Source: Candidatus Iainarchaeum sp. (GTDB taxonomy: Archaea > Iainarchaeota > Iainarchaeia > Iainarchaeales > JAZDDZ01). Taken from it: a stretch of DNA of 28,812 nt. The DNA lies in the NCBI GenBank assembly GCA_043809245.1, contig JAZDDZ010000050.1, positions 1 through 28,812 on the forward strand. The letters run 5' to 3'. A program made the translations under genes and the position numbers. The notes beneath the pieces were generated by a model. The model saw only the letters and a program-made list of their open reading frames with translations. It was not told the DNA's origin and did no database searches. Positions within the stretch are counted from its first letter, which is position 1. Each line of letters opens with the position of its first letter. This document shows, in pieces, positions 1 through 9,990 of the stretch.

Positions 1-38
1 GTGCTTTTTCTCGAACAACATTTACAGAATTAGTGCGT

Positions 39-141
39 TTAAGGGGACCATCTGGCTGTTCCCCTTAACAACCCCTTACCAAAGCCTCGATTCATCTATC
101 CCCTAAAGGGGATAAAGGTTTCTCTCGGCAACGGAACTAAA
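39..141 (-). mobile_element. Probable terminal region of an IS200/IS605-family element (body lies left of the window)
   Basis: Perfect hairpins TTAAGGGGA(39-47)/TCCCCTTAA(60-68) and TATCCCCT-AA-AGGGGATA (97-114), set in a TTCATC...CCCCTAAAGGGG...TTTCTC context that resembles subterminal palindromes of IS200/IS605 ends. On the minus strand it follows TTTA (138-141), a plausible target tetranucleotide. It abuts a start-less ORF. Confidence 0.45.
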
Positions 142-142
142 C

Positions 143-451
143 GGTTATGGAGCCTCCATCAAAAAGGATTATAAATTTCAAGATGCAGGTTATCGAATTG
201 TTGATATCAGAGATACGTATGGCATTCTTGTTGAAACACCCAAATGTAGGTATGCCAGTTTAAAAGGAGAAAAGCAAGGCGATATTTATTGTGAAAGAAT
301 TAGGGTTAAAGAGTATAGGTTAGCAGAGGATAACACAATACTTGTCAATCGAGTTTTAGATGAAAAGTATACGCTTGTGTTAAGAGTCATACCTGATACA
401 AACAATTTGAAGATAGGTAAAATAGAGATTGTAGACAGTTTCTGCACCTAA
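143..451 (+). pseudogene. 3' fragment of an interrupted gene (~102 codons, GYGASIKKDYKFQDAGYRIVDIRDTYG...KIEIVDSFCT*)
   Basis: Stop-free frame from 116 to TAA at 449-451 in AT-rich DNA with no start codon near its 5' end. Begins at the putative IS boundary. Absent from the ORF track. Confidence 0.55.
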
Positions 452-477
452 AGTCCACTGCCTGCACCTAAAGTGCC
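442..477. repeat. 13-bp direct repeat CTGCACCTAAAGT x2 (20-bp period), possible right end of another transposon
   Basis: Copies at 442-454 and 462-474. The minus strand reads GGCACTTTAGGTGCAG from 477. The upstream ORF's stop codon lies inside the inner copy. Confidence 0.7.
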
Positions 478-510
478 TTTATAAACCCCCTAAAAGTGCA
501 AAGCTAAGCC

Positions 511-518
511 ATTTTCCC
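511..518. repeat. Left copy of putative 8-bp target-site duplication (ATTTTCCC)
   Basis: Directly abuts the left TIR; matches CTTTTCCC at 4553-4560 at 7/8 positions. IS6-family elements make 8-bp duplications. Confidence 0.7.
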
Positions 519-540
519 GGCTTTGTCGCAAAGTCGTCGT
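519..540 (+). repeat. Left terminal inverted repeat GGCTTTGTCGCAAAGTCGTCGT
   Basis: Reverse complement of 4531-4552 is GGCTTTGTCGTAAATTCGTCAT (3 mismatches). Confidence 0.85.
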
Positions 541-562
541 TTTTGGCTGTTTTTCTGGCGAA

Positions 563-577
563 TGTCGTATTCGTCAG
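563..577 (+). repeat. Inner left inverted repeat TGTCGTATTCGTCAG
   Basis: Perfect 15-bp reverse complement of 4505-4519. Confidence 0.9.
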
Positions 578-593
578 ATTGGGGGGGCTGTAA

Positions 594-1619
594 ATGACCC
601 CTAAGGATAGGAAACGAAAGGGAGGTGAAGGCAAGCGTAAACGGAGTAAGCGACAACTGAGCAAACCAAAAATAGGCAAACGAAAGGCTAAAAAAGAGAA
701 AATACATAATATTGAAGAAAAAATGGACAAAGTTTATGTAATTATCGGGGGCTTGGCAATACTCACTTTAGTTTCAATTGTCTTTTCAGCCATATCTTTT
801 TCTTCTACCTCAAATATCCAAAATATACTTTCTTCACAAGCAGAGACCATTTCTGAATCAACATCTTCAAGAATTAGCGATAGATTTATGCCAAAATTAA
901 ACGAAATTGGCGAAGATGTTAATAACCTAAACCGAAAATTAGTTGATATTAATAATGCACTTTGGTTAGAATCTGAACAACATTTTTTAGAGGTCATGAA
1001 CAAAGTTGATGATTCAATTGTAGCAGTAATTGCCGCGCCTATAAAAGAGGGGCGAGAAGGATTAGGCGTTATTTATGTGGATAATCTTGGAAATGAAGGA
1101 TATATTGGAGCGGGATTTTCAATTAATAGCGCGGGACATATATTAACTGCAAGGCATAATGTAGATGGTTTTGAAACAATACTTTTAATGTCTGCGGATG
1201 GAACAATAATATCTGTTCCCAAAGAGATTATTCTTTATCCCCCATCAGGCGATTTAGCACTTATACCAATAAAAACAGACATTCCCTCTGTGGAACTATT
1301 AGAACAAGGAACATTAGATATAGGTTCTAATATTGGCTTTATTGGTTTTCCTATTCCAACTAAGGATGGTGCTATAGTGGAAACTAAAGCAACAGGAACT
1401 ATTTCAGGATTTTATTATTATGAGTATCGCGGTAAAAAAGTACCAGCCTATGTAATCCATTCATTGGCAACACATGGTAATAGTGGTGGTCCGATTTTTT
1501 CTATGAAAACGGGGAAAGTAGGAGGCATGATTAATCAGGGCATTTCTGAAAATATAGTCGGCATAGCATTAGGTTCAGCATTTAATAAGGCTAGCTTAGG
1601 ATTACCTAATCCAAGTTAA
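594..1619 (+). CDS. Membrane-anchored trypsin-like (S1/HtrA-type, no PDZ) serine protease; real start may be ATG 723
   Basis: Catalytic triad motifs LTARHNV, GDLALI and HGNSGGP; TM helix VYVIIGGLAILTLVSIVFSAISF followed by a coiled-coil linker. Confidence 0.85.
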   Translation: MTPKDRKRKGGEGKRKRSKRQLSKPKIGKRKAKKEKIHNIEEKMDKVYVIIGGLAILTLVSIVFSAISFSSTSNIQNILSSQAETISESTSSRISDRFMPKLNEIGEDVNNLNRKLVDINNALWLESEQHFLEVMNKVDDSIVAVIAAPIKEGREGLGVIYVDNLGNEGYIGAGFSINSAGHILTARHNVDGFETILLMSADGTIISVPKEIILYPPSGDLALIPIKTDIPSVELLEQGTLDIGSNIGFIGFPIPTKDGAIVETKATGTISGFYYYEYRGKKVPAYVIHSLATHGNSGGPIFSMKTGKVGGMINQGISENIVGIALGSAFNKASLGLPNPS

Positions 1620-1621
1620 AA

Positions 1622-2749
1622 TCATAAACTTTTTTCTATCAGGCTTAACCATTTATTTCTTTCTAACTGTAAATTTATTCCTGCTTTTTCTGCTGGCGTT
1701 TTGCCGATTGTGGAATTGTTTTTGACGAAGTTGTGGTAAACCCTATGCCCATTCAACCATTTCTGCGTTGAAGCGTTTGATTTGAAGCCCCTGCGTACCT
1801 TGTCAAATTCTCGGAATTCGTTGTGGTATCGTTCCACTAAATTGTTGTTAATGATTTTTCTCCTGCCAACAATACTTATGTGCTTTGTTCTTTGCGATTT
1901 TGTGCGGAATTCTTTGCCTATGGCTTTGCTGTAAGTCCTCAGCTTGTCAGTAATAATGTATTTTGGTTCTATTGCGTTGGCGTTGTTTTCTTTTACTTCG
2001 TTGAAGTGCTTGCGGGCATCCTTAACAGTTCTTCCCTCTGTCAAAGTTGAGGCTAAAACGTATCTGGTGCTGTGGTCTATTGTGTTCCAAGCGTAAACCC
2101 ATTTGCCTTTAGACTTAACCATTTGCTCGTCGGAGTGAAACTGTCCGCTTAATTGAGGTGTAAACTTGTTTGTGTACTGTTCTATTTTTGCCGTGAACTT
2201 GTTTATCCACCTGCGGATTGTGTCAAAGTGAATTCTAATGTTATAGAATTGGTAAATGGTGTCGCTGATGTCCCTTAAGCTTAGCCCTTTGAAGTATAAG
2301 TCCATTGCGAGGGTTATTATTTTTGCGTCTGCTTTGCAGTATTTGATGGGTGTTTTTACAAAGTTTTTTCCGCAGGATTGGCAGTATAGTTTTTGCTTTG
2401 CTCCGTTCTTGTTTTTCCTGAAGCCGACTTTTACTATTTTGTTTGACCAGCAGAAAGGGCATTCGTCTTTGTTTTCGTTCACTTCTTTTTCCAAGTCAAA
2501 GCCGTCTAACTCCGTTTTGTGCTTGGCTTTCAAAAAGAATTCTGTGGCGTGAATGTGCTTGCATTTAACGCCCCTTGCTTTAAAATCGGGGCAACTGCAT
2601 TGCCAGCCGTCAATGTGCTTGACTTCATATTTTCCGTTGCCTGATTGGCTTGGAACTAAAAACTCTTCCTTGCTTACAGCAACAGGCACATCGCCTTTAG
2701 CGATAATTGCCAGCCCTCTTATTTCTCTTGAGTCCATATTAACAACCAT
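1622..2749 (-). CDS. IS6-like DDE transposase with N-terminal SWIM zinc finger, zinc ribbon and HTH
   Basis: SWIM CSCPDF...CKH; zinc ribbon CPFC...CQSC; HTH LAMDLYFKGLSLRDIS; DDE motifs HSDEQMVK, IITDK and NNLVERYHN. Confidence 0.9.
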   Translation of the reverse strand: MVVNMDSREIRGLAIIAKGDVPVAVSKEEFLVPSQSGNGKYEVKHIDGWQCSCPDFKARGVKCKHIHATEFFLKAKHKTELDGFDLEKEVNENKDECPFCWSNKIVKVGFRKNKNGAKQKLYCQSCGKNFVKTPIKYCKADAKIITLAMDLYFKGLSLRDISDTIYQFYNIRIHFDTIRRWINKFTAKIEQYTNKFTPQLSGQFHSDEQMVKSKGKWVYAWNTIDHSTRYVLASTLTEGRTVKDARKHFNEVKENNANAIEPKYIITDKLRTYSKAIGKEFRTKSQRTKHISIVGRRKIINNNLVERYHNEFREFDKVRRGFKSNASTQKWLNGHRVYHNFVKNNSTIGKTPAEKAGINLQLERNKWLSLIEKSL

Positions 2750-2820
2750 TAATAACTATTAATAATAAATAGCGAAGTGTTTATATATCTTTCTATTAAT
2801 GACTATTAGTGGTTGTTAAT
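2738..2820. promoter_or_regulatory. Divergent promoter: central TATA element flanked by 27-bp inverted operator-like repeats
   Basis: ATTAACAACCATTAATAACTATTAATA (2738-2764) matches the reverse complement of 2794-2820 at 23/27 positions; TTTATATAT lies in the middle (~2780-2788). Confidence 0.7.
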
Positions 2821-2950
2821 GGCTAAGAAACTTATTTTAGATATTGATGAAGCCACATGGAGAGAGGTATTAAAATACAAAATAGATTATGGATTAAAGA
2901 ACAATAATCAAACAGTTATAAAGCTCATACAAAAAGGATTAAAACTGTAG
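2819..2950 (+). CDS. 43-aa ribbon-helix-helix-like regulator (MAKKLILDIDEATWREVLKYKIDYGLKNNNQTVIKLIQKGLKL)
   Basis: ATG 2819, TAG 2948-2950. Alternating beta-strand KKLILDID followed by two amphipathic helices split by Gly. Divergent from the transposase. Too short for the ORF track. Confidence 0.7.
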   Translation: MAKKLILDIDEATWREVLKYKIDYGLKNNNQTVIKLIQKGLKL

Positions 2951-2966
2951 CTAACCAAAGTTCTAA

Positions 2967-4199
2967 ATGGCAATTGGACAACCAACTCAGCAAAGAATTA
3001 CTTGGTTTTATCAGAGAGATAAGGAAGGCGCTCTTGAACTTGCCCCTCCATTCCAAAGAAAACCTGTTTGGAGTATGAAAAATAAATCCTTTTTGATTGA
3101 CACAATAATTCAACAACTTCCAATACCAGAAATTTATATGCAAATAAAAACAGATAAAGATGGAAAAACCAAATATGTTGTTGTGGATGGGCAACAAAGA
3201 TTAAGAGCTATATTAGAGTTTCTGGAAGGAGAATTTTCTATTCTCTCAGACGATAACCCCACACACGGAGATAAAGAATTTAAAGAACTCCCTGACGGGG
3301 TTAAAAAAGACATTTGGGATTATGCTCTTGTAGTAAGAGAACTTGAAAATACTACTGATGAAGGAATAAGAGGAATTTTCACTAGATTAAATAAAAATGT
3401 TGTTCCATTAAATAGACAAGAACTAAGAAACGCTCGATTTGTTGGGGAGTTTATAAAATTGATGACTGAACTTAGCGAAGATACTTATTGGGCAGAAAAT
3501 AGAGTTGTTTCTCCAAGCGACATAAGAAGGATGCTTGATGTTGAATTCATTAGTGATTTGTTTATAACGACGATTCACGGAATTCAAGATAAAAATTCAG
3601 ATACCCTTGATAATTTTTACAAAATGTATGATGCACAATTCCAAGACAAAGAACCGCGAGAAAAACAGTTTAGAAAAACTTTAACAATTATTGACGATAT
3701 ATTAGGAGATTTAAAACCAACCCGCTGGCATTACAAAAATGATTTCTACTCTTTATTTGTAGTAATATCTGAACTAATAAATGAATACCAATTTCCAACC
3801 GAGAGATATCCATTAATAAAAGACTCTTTAAACACATTTATTTCAGAAGTTGATTTGAAAGGAACAAAATCGACTCAATCACTAATTAAGGAATATTCTG
3901 AAGCATCGGAAGCACACACAACTAACCAAAGTCAAAGAAAAAAGAGAGTAAACGTAATTCGCCAATTAATAATCCCCTTCTTAATCGCAAAAGACCACAA
4001 AAGAAATTTTACTGAGGAAGAAAGACGAATATTTTGGAATATGGCTAAAGAGAAAAAATGTGCTCTATGCAAAGATGAAGTCAAATGGGCGGAATATGAG
4101 TTAGACCATATAACCCCGCATACAAAAAGTGGGAAAACCGAGTTACAAAATGCACAGATAACTCACAAAAAATGCAATGCCTCAAAAGGGGCAAAATAA
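2967..4199 (+). CDS. DUF262 (ParB/Srx-like) + C-terminal HNH nuclease, GmrSD-like putative modification-dependent restriction/defence protein
   Basis: PPFQRKPVW, VVDGQQRL and FTRLNK motifs; C-terminal CALC...ELDHITPHTKSGKTELQNAQITHKKCNASKG. Confidence 0.85.
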   Translation: MAIGQPTQQRITWFYQRDKEGALELAPPFQRKPVWSMKNKSFLIDTIIQQLPIPEIYMQIKTDKDGKTKYVVVDGQQRLRAILEFLEGEFSILSDDNPTHGDKEFKELPDGVKKDIWDYALVVRELENTTDEGIRGIFTRLNKNVVPLNRQELRNARFVGEFIKLMTELSEDTYWAENRVVSPSDIRRMLDVEFISDLFITTIHGIQDKNSDTLDNFYKMYDAQFQDKEPREKQFRKTLTIIDDILGDLKPTRWHYKNDFYSLFVVISELINEYQFPTERYPLIKDSLNTFISEVDLKGTKSTQSLIKEYSEASEAHTTNQSQRKKRVNVIRQLIIPFLIAKDHKRNFTEEERRIFWNMAKEKKCALCKDEVKWAEYELDHITPHTKSGKTELQNAQITHKKCNASKGAK

Positions 4200-4223
4200 T
4201 TAATCTATAGAGGCGGGATAAAA

Positions 4224-4508
4224 ATGTTCAGAGTAATTAATATTGAAAAACTAAAAAGGATTTATAGCCAAACCAAAAGCCAAGACCTAAAAGATACAAT
4301 AAAAGTGTTCATTGAAGCATACCATACAATTAATCCCTTAGACCAAGAGCTTCAACAAATCAAGGCAAAGCTTTCTCAACTGGAAGAAAAATATGTAGAG
4401 CAAAACTATTCAGTTGATGATGTTGATTCAAAAGCCGATGACTTAAAGAGTGAGATAGATGACTTGGAACGAAGGATACTTGACCTTGAGGCAAAAGAAA
4501 AAAACTGA
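4224..4508 (+). CDS. Small coiled-coil protein, transposon cargo
   Basis: 94 aa with heptad repeats (LQQIKAKLSQLEEK, LKSEIDDLERRILDLE); GAGG upstream; stop codon inside the inner IR. Confidence 0.65.
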   Translation: MFRVINIEKLKRIYSQTKSQDLKDTIKVFIEAYHTINPLDQELQQIKAKLSQLEEKYVEQNYSVDDVDSKADDLKSEIDDLERRILDLEAKEKN

Positions 4509-4519
4509 CGAATACGACA
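4505..4519 (-). repeat. Inner right inverted repeat CTGACGAATACGACA
   Basis: Perfect match to 563-577. Confidence 0.9.
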
Positions 4520-4530
4520 GGCAAATTCAT

Positions 4531-4552
4531 ATGACGAATTTACGACAAAGCC
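4531..4552 (-). repeat. Right terminal inverted repeat
   Basis: ATGACGAATTTACGACAAAGCC, 19/22 match to 519-540. Confidence 0.85.
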
Positions 4553-4560
4553 CTTTTCCC
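4553..4560. repeat. Right copy of putative target-site duplication (CTTTTCCC)
   Basis: 7/8 identical to 511-518. Confidence 0.7.
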
Positions 4561-4652
4561 CCTTTTTAAATAGGTTTTTAAAGCTTTAGCAAGGATTTTT
4601 ATTTAGTGGGATTAAAACTAATTCACCTTAACCGGTGGGTGGCTGCTTTAAA

Positions 4653-5228
4653 ATGCAATACCAAATTGTGAATCTTGTTGCTTCCGCGAATTTGAATGCA
4701 ACACTTGACTTGTATAACTTGGCGGTAAGCATTCCAAACATTGAGTACGAGCCGGAACAGTTTCCAGGCGCAATTTTAAAGCTGAAAGAGCCCAAGGTTT
4801 CAATGCTTTTGTTCAAGAACGGAAAAGTAATCTGCTCCGGCGCGTCAAGTGAAAAGCAAATCAGCCTCGCTGTGCTAAAGGCAAGCAAACTGATTCACGA
4901 AATACAGCGTGGAGTGAAAATACAGAAGAACGCGAAATTTCAGGTGGTAAATCTTGTTGCAACCGCGAACTTGAACATGACCCTTGACCTTTTCAAGACA
5001 GCAATGAATCTGGATAACGTTGAATACGAGCCGGAACAGTTTCCAGGCGCAATCCTGCGCATTCACGAGCCCAAGATAACGCTTCTTTTATTCAAAAACG
5101 GAAAACTCATCTGCGCCGGCGCAAAAAAAGAGGAATTCCTGCGAAAAGGCTTAAAGAAGGCAGCGAAAATAATTCGGCAGGTTAACAGGCCGGAAAAAGC
5201 GAAAAGCGCTGCGAAGGCGAAAAAGTAA
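4653..5228 (+). CDS. tbp: TATA-box-binding protein
   Basis: Two TBP repeats, each with VNLVAxANLN...EYEPEQFPGAIL...LLFKNGKxICxGA. ATG 4653 preferred over GTG 4635, whose GGTGG looks like an RBS. Confidence 0.97.
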   Translation: MQYQIVNLVASANLNATLDLYNLAVSIPNIEYEPEQFPGAILKLKEPKVSMLLFKNGKVICSGASSEKQISLAVLKASKLIHEIQRGVKIQKNAKFQVVNLVATANLNMTLDLFKTAMNLDNVEYEPEQFPGAILRIHEPKITLLLFKNGKLICAGAKKEEFLRKGLKKAAKIIRQVNRPEKAKSAAKAKK

Positions 5229-5241
5229 GGTTTTGCAAGCA

Positions 5242-6168
5242 CTACTTCAACCGCAGGTATGTTCGCCTTTTTTTCATTGAATCAGTTATTGTAAAACCTG
5301 ATTGTTTAGCGGCTTTTCTATACGCCGAGTAATGCATTCCGGGCGTTTGGGTTTTGATTCTTGTAATTTCAGAATTGACTTTTTCCCGAATTGTTTGCAG
5401 ATTTTTTTCTGTTGCCGGGTCTCTTACCGAGCCATTAACGAAATGTTTCTGGAAAAGCCCTAACTCTTTTTCGCTAAGTTGCCCGCTCTTTTTCATTGAA
5501 TGGGCAGTTGCGAGTTCATTTGTGTCCATATAACTGTGAAGTTTTGGGTTAATTGCATAGGCGCGGGGAAATGCCTCGCAAAACGAGTCAACAAGGTGGG
5601 AAAGCAAAGGCTTTTTGAGTGCAGCTTCAAATTCTTTCACCAGATTATTATACTTGCCGCCCTGCATGTTTCCCAAAAGCACGGTTGGCGCGTTATTTTT
5701 TCCCAACACCAAATCAAAATGAAATGAAAAAACAAGTTTGCCGCGTTCATTATTCGGGTTTTTTTTATAAACTTGAATGCAGCAGTTTCTCTCTCTGCCT
5801 TTAAGGTCTCCACCCGAACCAAGCCTTAATTGATAGCCTCTTCGCGCTATTTTATTAATGGCTTCGGACAGGGGTGCGAAAAAATTCCTGAGGATAAAAA
5901 CCCGGGGCGTTGCATTAAGTTCAGGCAAAGGCACCTGCCTTTCATGGGGTTTCGTAACCTGAACGTAGGCAGTTATTGGGTCAAGCCATCCGACAAAAGC
6001 CTGAAAATTTTCCATGCCCCAAGCCCTGGTGCTCTGCTTAATTAAATCCAGGTCGCTTTCCAGTATCCCTTTTTTGGTTAAAAGCATTTGAGGCCAGCTT
6101 CCCTTTGACAAGCCAATCCTGCCCAGCTCCTCTAAAGCCTTTTCATGTGAAACCCATTTTTCACGCAT
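5242..6168 (-). CDS. Hypothetical protein with possible VirK/YbjX (DUF535)-like domain
   Basis: 308-aa ORF. Segment LVFSFHFDL...TVLLGNMQGG...AYAINPKLHSY resembles the DUF535 pattern (LFIGGLQG...AVSxxxHIY, recalled, not searched). Confidence 0.55.
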   Translation of the reverse strand: MREKWVSHEKALEELGRIGLSKGSWPQMLLTKKGILESDLDLIKQSTRAWGMENFQAFVGWLDPITAYVQVTKPHERQVPLPELNATPRVFILRNFFAPLSEAINKIARRGYQLRLGSGGDLKGRERNCCIQVYKKNPNNERGKLVFSFHFDLVLGKNNAPTVLLGNMQGGKYNNLVKEFEAALKKPLLSHLVDSFCEAFPRAYAINPKLHSYMDTNELATAHSMKKSGQLSEKELGLFQKHFVNGSVRDPATEKNLQTIREKVNSEITRIKTQTPGMHYSAYRKAAKQSGFTITDSMKKRRTYLRLK

Positions 6169-6227
6169 AATACTGAAAAAAAGGGGAACTTCTGAATTTA
6201 ACCATTTCTGATGCCAAAAAGTAAGCC

Positions 6228-6234
6228 TTTAAAA
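6228..6234 (+). promoter_or_regulatory. TATA box of the 5S rRNA gene
   Basis: TTTAAAA preceded by an A-rich BRE-like stretch, ending 23 nt before the 5S start. Confidence 0.55.
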
Positions 6235-6256
6235 CCATTCAGTGCAGTAATATTTC

Positions 6257-6376
6257 TGATTAGCGGCCATAGCTGCAGGGAAACACCCGGTCTCGTTCCG
6301 AACCCGGAAGTTAAGCCTGCATGCGCCGTGGTGTGCACTGGGTTATTGCCTGGAGCGCCCTGGACGCTGCTAATCA
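6257..6376 (+). rRNA. rrf: 5S rRNA (archaeal type, stand-alone)
   Basis: Helix I TGATTAGCGGC/GCTGCTAATCA; conserved GGCCATAGC...ACACCCGG TCTCGTTCCGAACCCGGAAGTTAAGCC; 120 nt. Confidence 0.95.
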
Positions 6377-6377
6377 C

Positions 6378-6412
6378 TTTCTGTTTTTATTTTTTTCCAA
6401 TACTCTTTTTTT
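6378..6412 (+). terminator. Oligo-T terminator region after 5S rRNA
   Basis: Successive T-tracts (TTTCTGTTTTTATTTTTTT...CTTTTTT). Confidence 0.55.
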
Positions 6413-6973
6413 ATGGATTTAGAGCAGGGGCCCGCATTGGAGCCGCATTTCGGCTTGAACCTTGAACTGCAGGGCAAAGCATTATTTAAGAGAATAACTG
6501 ATTTTCTTCTGGAAGAGCAAAGAGAATTCATTGAAACAGGCGACCCATTCAAGCTTAAACCTATTCCGGTTGAAAAGCTTGTGCATGAATTTGGGATGAA
6601 AGTAAATGCAATTCATAAGCTTTTCAGGGTACACGGCTACAATAGGATCGTAACTGTAAACAGGAATGGCAAAGAAGTTAAAGTAGGCGTTCCCGCCGGG
6701 CTTCTTTTTGGAAAACCTCCATCAGGCTTAATTGATGCGCTTGTTTTGCGCTCAATGAAAGAATTCAAGGGCAGAGAAAAACCCGTGACATCAGAAGAAA
6801 TAGCAAAATTAATCAGGGAAAAAACAGGCAGAGAAATTGCGCGCAGGACAATTTCCGCTTCAATTGGCAGAATGCAAATAACTGAGGGAATAAGAAGGCA
6901 GCAAACGGGGGCGCCAAAGCCTGAAAAGCAGTCAAAGTCAAGCAGACCAATAAGGCGCAGGAGAACACATTGA
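6413..6973 (+). CDS. Protein resembling the isolated C-terminal DNA-binding region of sigma-54 (RpoN)
   Basis: EEQREFIETGDPFKLKPIPVEKL parallels RpoN EQQxFFxxGxxxxKPMxLxDIA; KPVTSEEIAKLIREKTGREIARRTI parallels KPLSDxxIxxxLxxxGxxVARRTV (RpoN box). Confidence 0.7.
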   Translation: MDLEQGPALEPHFGLNLELQGKALFKRITDFLLEEQREFIETGDPFKLKPIPVEKLVHEFGMKVNAIHKLFRVHGYNRIVTVNRNGKEVKVGVPAGLLFGKPPSGLIDALVLRSMKEFKGREKPVTSEEIAKLIREKTGREIARRTISASIGRMQITEGIRRQQTGAPKPEKQSKSSRPIRRRRTH

Positions 6974-7035
6974 TTTTGCATTGTTCTCACAAAAACCGTT
7001 CCTTTTAAAAGTTATTTATAATATAGGTTTTTCTT

Positions 7036-8988: not shown

Positions 8989-9990
8989 TTGCAGAACCTC
9001 GCGGCAACACTCGCAATCTCATTCGTTGTGTCGCTTGTTTCCACTTTTCTCGTGATGCCTTTCCTGATAAAAAAATTGAAAGCAAGGGGCTTGGTCGGAA
9101 AGGACATGAACAAGGCAGGCGAGCCAGAGGTAACTGAGTTGGGCGGAACAGGCGTTATCTTTGGCTTCAGCTTTGGATTGGTTGCCGCAATTTTTTCATT
9201 CACTTACCTAGACCTTGTTGAACTGAATTTAACGGTTTTGCTTGCCGCTTTTCTAACGATTCTTTTAGTTGGATTCATTGGAGTAGTTGACGACCTCATT
9301 GGCTGGAAGAAAGGCCTGCGCCAATACCAGCACGCGTTAATGCCATTGGTTGCAGCGCTTCCCTTGATGGCTGTTAGGGCGGGAACAACTGAGATGGCGA
9401 TTCCATTGCTTGGCACTGTGGGCTTTGGAATCTTTTACTCGTTAATTCTTATTCCCGTTGGGGTTACTGGCGCTTCAAACGCGTTCAATATGCTTGCTGG
9501 GCTCAATGGTTTTGAGGCAGGGCAGGGAATAATAATTTTGAGCGCAATGAGTTTCATTGCGTTCTTCGCGGGGCAGGTTGAGGCAACAATAATCGGCGTG
9601 GCGCTTGTCGCGGCACTGCTTGCATTCATTTTTTTCAACTGGTTTCCCGCAAAGGTTTTCGGCGGCGATTCCCTTACACTAATGATTGGCGCAAGCATTG
9701 CCACAATTTCAATAATAGGCAACATGGAGAAAATCGGCGTGATGATGCTCGCGCTATACTTTGTGGAGCTAATCATTAAGGCGCGCACTAAATTCCAGTC
9801 CGAATGCTTCGGCGAAATACAGAAAGACGGAAAACTGGAGCCGCCAAAGCAAAAAGGAAGCCTAACGCATTACGTAATGGCGTGGAAGAGGCTGACTGAA
9901 AAACAGGTTGTGCTTACAATATTTGCATTGCAGGCAATCGTTGCAGTGCTTGTCGTATTCTACTCTTTTTTCCTCACGCATCTTTTCTAA
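8989..9990 (+). CDS. aglH: UDP-GlcNAc:dolichyl-phosphate GlcNAc-1-phosphate transferase (AglH/ALG7, MraY-like family)
   Basis: GKDMNK, ELGG, GVVDDL, NAFNMLAGLNGFEAG, FNWFPAKVFGGDS; polytopic membrane protein; TTG start after AGGTGA. Confidence 0.88.
   Translation: MQNLAATLAISFVVSLVSTFLVMPFLIKKLKARGLVGKDMNKAGEPEVTELGGTGVIFGFSFGLVAAIFSFTYLDLVELNLTVLLAAFLTILLVGFIGVVDDLIGWKKGLRQYQHALMPLVAALPLMAVRAGTTEMAIPLLGTVGFGIFYSLILIPVGVTGASNAFNMLAGLNGFEAGQGIIILSAMSFIAFFAGQVEATIIGVALVAALLAFIFFNWFPAKVFGGDSLTLMIGASIATISIIGNMEKIGVMMLALYFVELIIKARTKFQSECFGEIQKDGKLEPPKQKGSLTHYVMAWKRLTEKQVVLTIFALQAIVAVLVVFYSFFLTHLF

Follow-up and report, generated by a model that had tools for sequence, protein, structure and literature searches.

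Few movers of resistance genes have been studied as much as the IS6/IS26 elements. As set out in the text of a 2021 review of the family (PMC7986276), its members measure about 700-900 bp, up to 1,760 bp, carry a transposase gene only, end in terminal repeats with a GG tip and cTGTt and caaa motifs, and produce 8-bp target duplications; a single passenger-carrying member, ISDsp3, is named there. The same text attributes replicative copy-in transposition to IS26, describes an N-terminal zinc-finger extension in clade h (e.g., ISCpe7), such long proteins being found mostly in Clostridia, and concludes that the assembly of IS6 transposases on the ends and their choice of target are still open. 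Harmer and Hall argue, in the text of PMC6807381, that a separate family may be warranted for the archaeal 'IS6' elements. As to Sleeping Beauty, the text of PMC5224488 reports that the outer direct repeats (DRs) exceed the inner ones by 2 bp, that DR length is read by the RED subdomain of a bipartite DNA-binding domain, and that cleavage is inhibited at the inner DR in the course of an ordered assembly. Here we analyse a stretch of 28,812 nucleotides (hereafter the window) from the archaeon Candidatus Iainarchaeum sp. (assembly GCA_043809245.1, contig JAZDDZ010000050.1, positions 1 to 28,812 of the forward strand). Positions 519-4552 very probably form a single IS6-family cargo transposon of 4,034 bp, which encodes a DDE transposase and three passenger proteins and bears at each end two sites in direct orientation predicted to bind the transposase.

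Two nested pairs of inverted repeats delimit this transposon. The outer pair (519-538 and 4533-4552; 20 nt, 18/20 matching, 90%) reads GGCTTTGTCGCAAAG from position 519 and is identical at 11/14 positions to the IS26 repeat GGCACTGTTGCAAA, taken from a plasmid copy. The inner pair has TGTCGTATTCGTCAG as its left arm (563-577) and the exact reverse complement as its right arm (4505-4519), and extends to 18 nt at 94% according to the repeat finder. The chance that two 15-bp arms, each lying within ~60 nt of an end, form a perfect inverted pair is by simple arithmetic ~45 x 45 / 4^15, or ~2e-6. The initial annotation had pointed out this perfect TGT...ACA pair and had described it as the outer core with 2 nt removed. 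Direct reading of the sequence confirms both, TGTCG and CGTCA being separated by 4 nt in the inner repeat vs. 6 nt in the outer one. The unequal spacing that it reported between outer and inner repeats is real as well: counted from the start of the outer TGTCG to that of the inner one, it amounts to 39 nt at the left end vs. 28 nt at the right end, and the earlier 22 and 11 reflect the same asymmetry, with values that vary with the end point chosen for the outer core. Two explanations had been offered, namely that the inner repeats are subterminal second transposase-binding sites, or that they are the tips of a distinct TGT...ACA element lodged in a ~70-bp landing pad resembling a miniature inverted-repeat transposable element (MITE).

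Related elements were sought through the transposase. Full-length relatives were found in G030, G037, G056 and G027 among 61 genomes, and in G071 among 196 genomes of the order, where G123 also gave a partial match at a contig start. The 215 genomes of the phylum added no relatives to those of the order, the viral contigs gave none, and six metagenome contigs and two genome contigs contributed further ones. Ends could be defined at L021 (in G030), L022 (in G037), L025, L027, L031 (two elements), L036 (in G071, three elements) and L030/L032. The last was left out of the comparison, since its tip could not be fixed; both of its sites are visible (outer, TGTCGCATTAACGGGTG; inner, TGTCTAATTCGGGTG). 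The 14 ends retained come from the window and the six other loci, and belong to elements whose transposases are 43-71% identical to that of the window.

Judging from the flanking DNA, the outer pair represents the cut-and-joined ends of the element. An 8-bp duplication borders the outer GG tips in all four complete elements, with 8/8 matches in L025 (5,423 bp), G071 element B (3,677 bp) and G037 (3,196 bp), and 7/8 in the window (ATTTTCCC and CTTTTCCC), where random window 8-mers reach 7/8 or better with P = 0.0008. Only in the window is the inner pair, too, bordered by a repeat: GGCGAA (557-562) and GGCAAA (4520-4525) agree at 5/6 positions, vs. 2/6, 1/6 and 2/6 in the other three elements, respectively. 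In the second of its two explanations, the initial annotation had taken this repeat for the duplication left by an insertion. It does exist, and we regard it as a coincidence; for random window 6-mer pairs, a match of 5/6 or better has P = 0.007 in one fixed register and a higher probability when the length is freely chosen.

It seems to us scarcely credible that 563-4519 is a TGT...ACA element in its own right, which entered a ~77-bp miniature IS6-type landing pad and generated a 6-bp duplication there. Such an event would account for the perfect inner pair, with its TGT start and ACA end, and for the 5/6 repeat around it, and elements of this clade do occur beside each other's ends. Against it stand, besides the flanks of the other complete elements, the genes themselves. 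The only transposase is of the IS6 type, the end type of which is the outer repeat; an inner element would need a second transposase, and a Pfam scan of the open reading frames (ORFs) of 519-4552 revealed no TnsA, TnsB, TnsC or IS481-type integrase gene. The IS6 transposase would thereby be given non-IS6 ends, and the IS6 ends would be left without a gene. Moreover, in the host genome (1.48 Mb, 55 contigs), no empty junction corresponding to the removal of the inner or the outer element was found, only the window's own two halves being matched, and the count of MITE-like outer pairs (30-400 bp apart) was 0. The junction of an empty mini-element, which this scenario predicts, was thus absent from the host genome.

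Both sites are present at 14/14 ends. Every end displays a GG tip, a core starting 5 nt in and a second core further inward; the distal half-site is read at offset 11 in all 14 outer sites, and at offset 9 in 13 of the inner ones (10 in the remaining one). Four classes of distal half-site can be distinguished: CGTCA (4-mer GTCA; window, L025, L031 element 2 and G071 element A), CGGGT (GGGT; G030 and L031 element 1), CGGTT (GGTT; G071 elements B and C, and L027) and CGGTG (GGTG; G037). The distal 4-mers of the outer and inner sites of the same end agree at 4/4 positions in 12 ends and at 3/4 in 2 ends, with a mean agreement of 3.86 within one end vs. 2.14 across different ends. Such in-step change is as expected of sites that would be read by one protein. 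Start-to-start distances between the two cores are either 27-29 nt (7 ends) or 38-39 nt (7 ends), a difference of about one helical turn, and each of the four complete elements has one end of each kind. The spacer sequences between the sites are not conserved across these ends.

Together with the duplications at the outer tips, the conservation and co-variation of these 14 ends support the first explanation of the initial annotation and refute the second. Independent insertions into independent pads would not give co-varying half-sites and two fixed spacings at 14/14 ends; as far as the data reach, both pairs are always present at fixed spacings and no empty mini-element exists. One grain of the second explanation survives in altered form, in that whole elements of the clade adjoin each other's outer ends at 8 bp, as described below.

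The same comparison bears on whether the inner repeats could be a functionless fossil of an old end duplication, for instance of an element inserted into another, inherited by the whole clade. The inner site does resemble a shortened copy of the outer core, and IS15 is a published case of an IS6 element inserted in another (text of PMC7986276). However, the spacers have diverged beyond recognition while the sites, the 2-nt offset and the spacing classes have been kept at a transposase identity of only 43%, and the distal half-site has changed in step in the outer and inner sites at least three times, which points to selection by one binding protein. We therefore consider a fossil origin very unlikely. 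The inner repeats could also be operators for transcription entering or leaving the element, at which the transposase or a host factor would bind, and have no role in the assembly of the transposition complex. The promoter of the IS26 transposase gene lies within the first 82 bp of the left end (text of PMC7986276), and the stop codon of the last passenger ORF falls inside the inner repeat in the window and in L025. This alternative is nonetheless unlikely: in the window, ~1.8 kb lie between the start of the transposase gene and the nearer end, the region upstream of that gene is its own and contains a different inverted repeat, the sites occur at both ends in the same inward orientation, and phasing by about one helical turn fits an architectural role better.

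Several observations weigh against the two-site reading or limit its reach. No recognisable end motif was found in L023, L026, L028 and L029, nor in L034, a 2-kb contig beginning within the transposase gene, and L024 (G027:C47) has different inverted repeats of ~95 bp, at about 5299-5393 and 9795-9889. Relative to the transposase gene, the short and long ends have swapped sides in G037 and L031 element 1, so that the spacing asymmetry is not tied to that gene. The 14 ends are kin and not independent, and about four half-site classes carry the independent signal. No further copy of the element, of its transposase or of either repeat was found in the 1.48-Mb host genome, and the outer ends are present only once; the element being single-copy, its current activity is unproven. 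Finally, archaeal IS6-like elements are presented in the text of PMC6807381 as being so far without experiments.

The two-site organisation suggests the following mechanism. DNA would be cut and joined at the terminal site, GGCTT-TGTCG-N6-CGTCA, whereas the subterminal site, TGTCG-N4-CGTCAG, would be bound and not cut. The transposase combines zinc-finger modules with the helix-turn-helix region that normally precedes the DDE domain, and may read the two half-sites, TGTCG and CGTCA(G), with two DNA-binding modules. In the paired-end complex, the inner sites would help assembly and orientation, and the outer site could be marked for cleavage by its 2-nt longer spacer, along with the GGCTT tip that precedes it, by analogy with the inverted repeat/direct repeat (IR/DR) ends of Sleeping Beauty. 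Movement is assumed, from the example of IS26, to follow the replicative copy-in route.

Members of the clade also lie beside one another. At L036 (G071:C29, 6869-10680), the order is the right end of remnant A, CTGAAAGC, element B, CTGAAAGC and the left end of element C. The presence of CTGAAAGC on both sides of element B indicates that the 8-bp spacer separating two resident ends was the target of its insertion and was duplicated by it. At L031 (600-720), two elements of different half-site class abut with 8 bp, CTGCGCCG, between them. The elements of the window and L025 occupy the same position upstream of a TATA-binding protein (TBP) gene and have wholly different cargo. Each has, 8 bp away, a 15-mer that starts like an end (GGCTT), GGCTTAGCTTTGCAC in the window and GGCTTGGCCTTGCAC in L025. 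Their duplications read GGGAAAA(G/T) in the window and GGAAAACT twice in L025; the difference between the two lineages is shared by both copies, which makes two distinct insertions into a single site more likely than one old insertion.

The exactness of the 8-bp abutment hints at insertion next to resident ends. We tentatively raise the possibility that the clade couples an ordered assembly of the IR/DR type, in which the inner sites would nucleate and the outer ones alone be cleaved, to insertion aimed at the 8 bp flanking a resident IS6-type terminus or a look-alike, by which passenger modules might be stacked head to tail at one locus. The sample of abutments is small and calls for caution as to targeting. 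No end-like sequence occurs 8 bp away in G030, G037, L027 and L030. The 15-mer at 496-510, for which exact copies expected by chance in the genome number about 0.003 (arithmetic), has one other exact copy, at C42:59442, within an ordinary 154-aa ORF. Repeated insertion into a local hot spot would produce the same arrangement. A search of the 196 genomes of the order for the abutting-end pattern returned only the two known G071 junctions (spacing 8) and no new case, along with one match of 20-nt spacing in G024.

Two candidates were set aside in the course of these searches. Positions 142-510 of the window were considered as the end of another IS6-like element, which is unproven; the second copy of the 15-mer lies inside an ordinary ORF. 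In viral contigs, the abutting pattern gave at least 120 matches, with a second TGTCG 25-42 nt inward in 0 of the 80 loci retrieved from among them; these matches were treated as chance occurrences in GC-rich phage DNA.

The features of the element and its surroundings are collected in Table 1. The transposase matches the NCBIfam model NF033587 ('IS6 family transposase') with 134.2 bits, above the curated cut-off of 125, and Pfam PF13610 (DDE_Tnp_IS240) with E 1.4e-19 over profile positions 4-138 of 139; its SWIM zinc finger is matched in Pfam with E 1.7e-5. It is 23% identical to the IS26 transposase over 89% of its length and 32% identical to that of ISCpe7 over 60%, and no relative was found among solved structures at E <= 0.01. 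The protease passenger matches PF13365 (E 1.3e-13) and the protease part of PADLOC RT-Protease_XI (E 1.6e-12). The nuclease passenger matches PF03235 (E 9.9e-22) and HNH (E 1e-7), and its best PADLOC match is NsnA (E 4.9e-43); on these profile matches, this GmrSD_N/HNH nuclease is classed as defence-like.

Table 1. Features of the transposon at 519-4552 and of its immediate flanks (window positions; aa, amino acids).
Feature	Position	Strand	Description
End-like 15-mer	496..510	minus	reads GGCTTAGCTTTGCAC; exactly 8 bp outside the left terminus; same place in L025, 13/15 conserved
Left 8-bp target-site duplication copy	511..518	no strand	ATTTTCCC; 7/8 vs. 4553-4560
Left terminal site (IS6-type inverted repeat)	519..539	plus	GGCTT tip + TGTCG + 6 nt + CGTCG
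Left subterminal site	563..577	plus	TGTCG + 4 nt + CGTCAG; 39 nt inward of the terminal core, start to start
Passenger gene, trypsin-like serine protease domain, 341 aa	594..1619	plus	PF13365
Transposase, 375 aa	1622..2749	minus	SWIM zinc finger, second zinc ribbon, then IS6-type DDE domain
27-nt inverted repeat, arms 29 nt apart	2738..2820	no strand	85% complementary (repeat finder)
Passenger gene, 410 aa, GmrSD_N (DUF262) and HNH nuclease domains	2967..4199	plus	PF03235, HNH
Passenger gene, 94-aa coiled-coil protein	4224..4508	plus	TGA stop within the right subterminal site
Right subterminal site	4505..4519	minus	same sequence as the left site; 28 nt inward of the terminal core, start to start
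Right terminal site	4532..4552	minus	GGCTT + TGTCG + 6 nt + CGTCA
Right 8-bp target-site duplication copy	4553..4560	no strand	CTTTTCCC; TBP gene next, ORF listed from 4635

The TBP gene, which marks the host as an archaeon, lies directly downstream of the element (PF00352, E 1.7e-53). The element sits in an A/T-rich stretch with TATA-like motifs (window 4553-4660), which is ~74% identical in L025:1-132. In the window (4506-4508) as in L025 (5498-5500), the TGA that ends the last passenger ORF is embedded in the CTGACG of the inner repeat. The inverted repeat at 2738-2820 sits in the divergent region between the transposase and nuclease genes, and may be an operator. Scans for tRNAs and Rfam families over window positions 1-7000 and 1-5300 returned no match, and no attachment site of the tRNA type is involved. 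Allowing up to 1 mismatch, the inner 15-mer was not found elsewhere in the host genome; the one 2-mismatch match, at C49:573, was rejected, since the surrounding sequence is unrelated and neither an element end nor a transposase adjoins it. Farther out, a 140-nt stretch (window 1-141) is repeated at 100% identity at the starts of C46, C22, C21 and C11 and inside C23, and at 96% inside C8. It always ends in ...GGAACTAA, followed by different sequence in each copy. This stretch is hairpin-rich, has no Rfam match and resembles the terminus of a multi-copy element responsible for breaks in the assembly.

Cargo differs between relatives. The complete ones span 3,196-5,423 bp and hold several ORFs, and L025 carries an 823-aa methyltransferase-like protein in place of the nuclease and protease of the window. 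L031 is a 2.5-kb contig with two archaeal-type elements that was filed in a bin named Saccharibacteria bacterium, a placement that could be a binning error or a transfer. The L024 element, whose transposase is 40% identical to that of the window, has a longer and different end design, its repeats having a perfect 23-bp inner arm and TTTGCA-type cores. In databases, homologous transposases form 653 clusters at E <= 1e-20 among 1,966 candidates, the named ones being labelled as IS6-family or DDE transposases of DPANN-type archaea. Given these 653 clusters, the element type is probably common; it is probably also undescribed.

These elements could be informative in several respects. Two phased sites per end with a fixed 2-nt difference offer a natural test of whether IS6-type transposases assemble on multiple sites in an ordered manner, as in Sleeping Beauty. 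Ends of the IS6 type can evidently carry several kilobases of passenger genes as a unit, including a GmrSD/HNH-type nuclease here and a large DNA methyltransferase in a relative, and they do so in small-genome archaea, the mobile elements of which are poorly described. If the 8-bp abutment reflects true targeting, it would constitute a new way of building gene arrays.

Among known systems, the ends of phage Mu and Tn7 carry several transposase-binding sites whose numbers or spacings differ between left and right; these elements rely on the MuA and TnsB transposases with accessory proteins and produce 5-bp duplications. None of those genes was found in the window's ORFs by the Pfam scan. Tn7-like elements are further defined by TnsA/TnsB/TnsC, TGT...ACA tips and arrays of TnsB sites, along with the 5-bp duplication. 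Here, the ORFs of 519-4552 contain no such domains, and the duplication is of 8 bp, at GG tips. The IS481 family combines an rve-type DDE transposase with TGT...ACA tips. The rve match of the window transposase reaches only E 0.0047 and 17.6 bits vs. a cut-off of 32.6, and lies beneath the IS6 match, and the inner pair is without a duplication in the relatives. A MITE landing pad would have its two ends in close proximity without an ORF and would occur as independent copies; the host genome offers neither MITE-like outer pairs nor an empty junction.

The element shares with IS6/IS26 family members such as IS26, IS257 and IS6100 a DDE transposase recognised by the IS6 model, an 8-bp duplication, a terminal repeat with GG, TGT and CAAA motifs, and an N-terminal zinc finger like that of clade h. 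In transposase type, duplication and GG-tip end motif, it belongs to the IS6 family. It departs from the simple organisation of a short element with a transposase gene only, at 4,034 bp and three passenger ORFs vs. about 800 bp, and it is for this reason filed as an IS6-type transposon (tIS) and not as a plain IS. It also differs by the second, subterminal copy of the motif at each end, by its small-genome archaeal host and by the low identity (23%) of its transposase to that of IS26. Its long zinc-finger transposase is archaeal, whereas those of clade h are mostly found in Clostridia (text of PMC7986276). By eye, the ends of ISCpe7 (L041) and IS26 (L040) show no obvious second core copy within ~70 nt. 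The word 'subterminal' has 0 occurrences in the text of either IS6 review (PMC7986276, PMC6807381), and no description of subterminal repeats or multi-gene cargo in IS6-type elements was found in the literature texts consulted, figures and supplements lying outside that scope. On sequence comparison, two-site ends, size with multi-gene cargo, and a long zinc-finger transposase in archaea set the element apart within the IS6 family.

The IS6 review also discusses, in its text, the targeting of IS26, and cites work on IS911 and IS30 (PMC7986276). The abutments described here resemble the targeted insertion of IS911, the (IS)2 junctions of IS30 and the targeted conservative cointegration of IS26, in which a resident end or look-alike attracts a new insertion. 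In the case of IS26, however, the incoming unit joins the resident copy directly, with no new duplication. The present elements retain and duplicate an 8-bp spacer, and the ends that abut are of different sub-types.

The closest functional parallel to these ends is, by analogy, the IR/DR end of Sleeping Beauty, a likeness of design and not of descent. Both have two direct repeats per end, the outer one exactly 2 bp longer in the spacer between its half-sites, a design found here at 13/14 ends (offset 11 vs. 9). Sleeping Beauty differs by its unrelated transposase family (Tc1/mariner superfamily), eukaryotic host, cut-and-paste transposition and TA duplication. Its inner repeats, moreover, lie much further inside, at about 165 bp.

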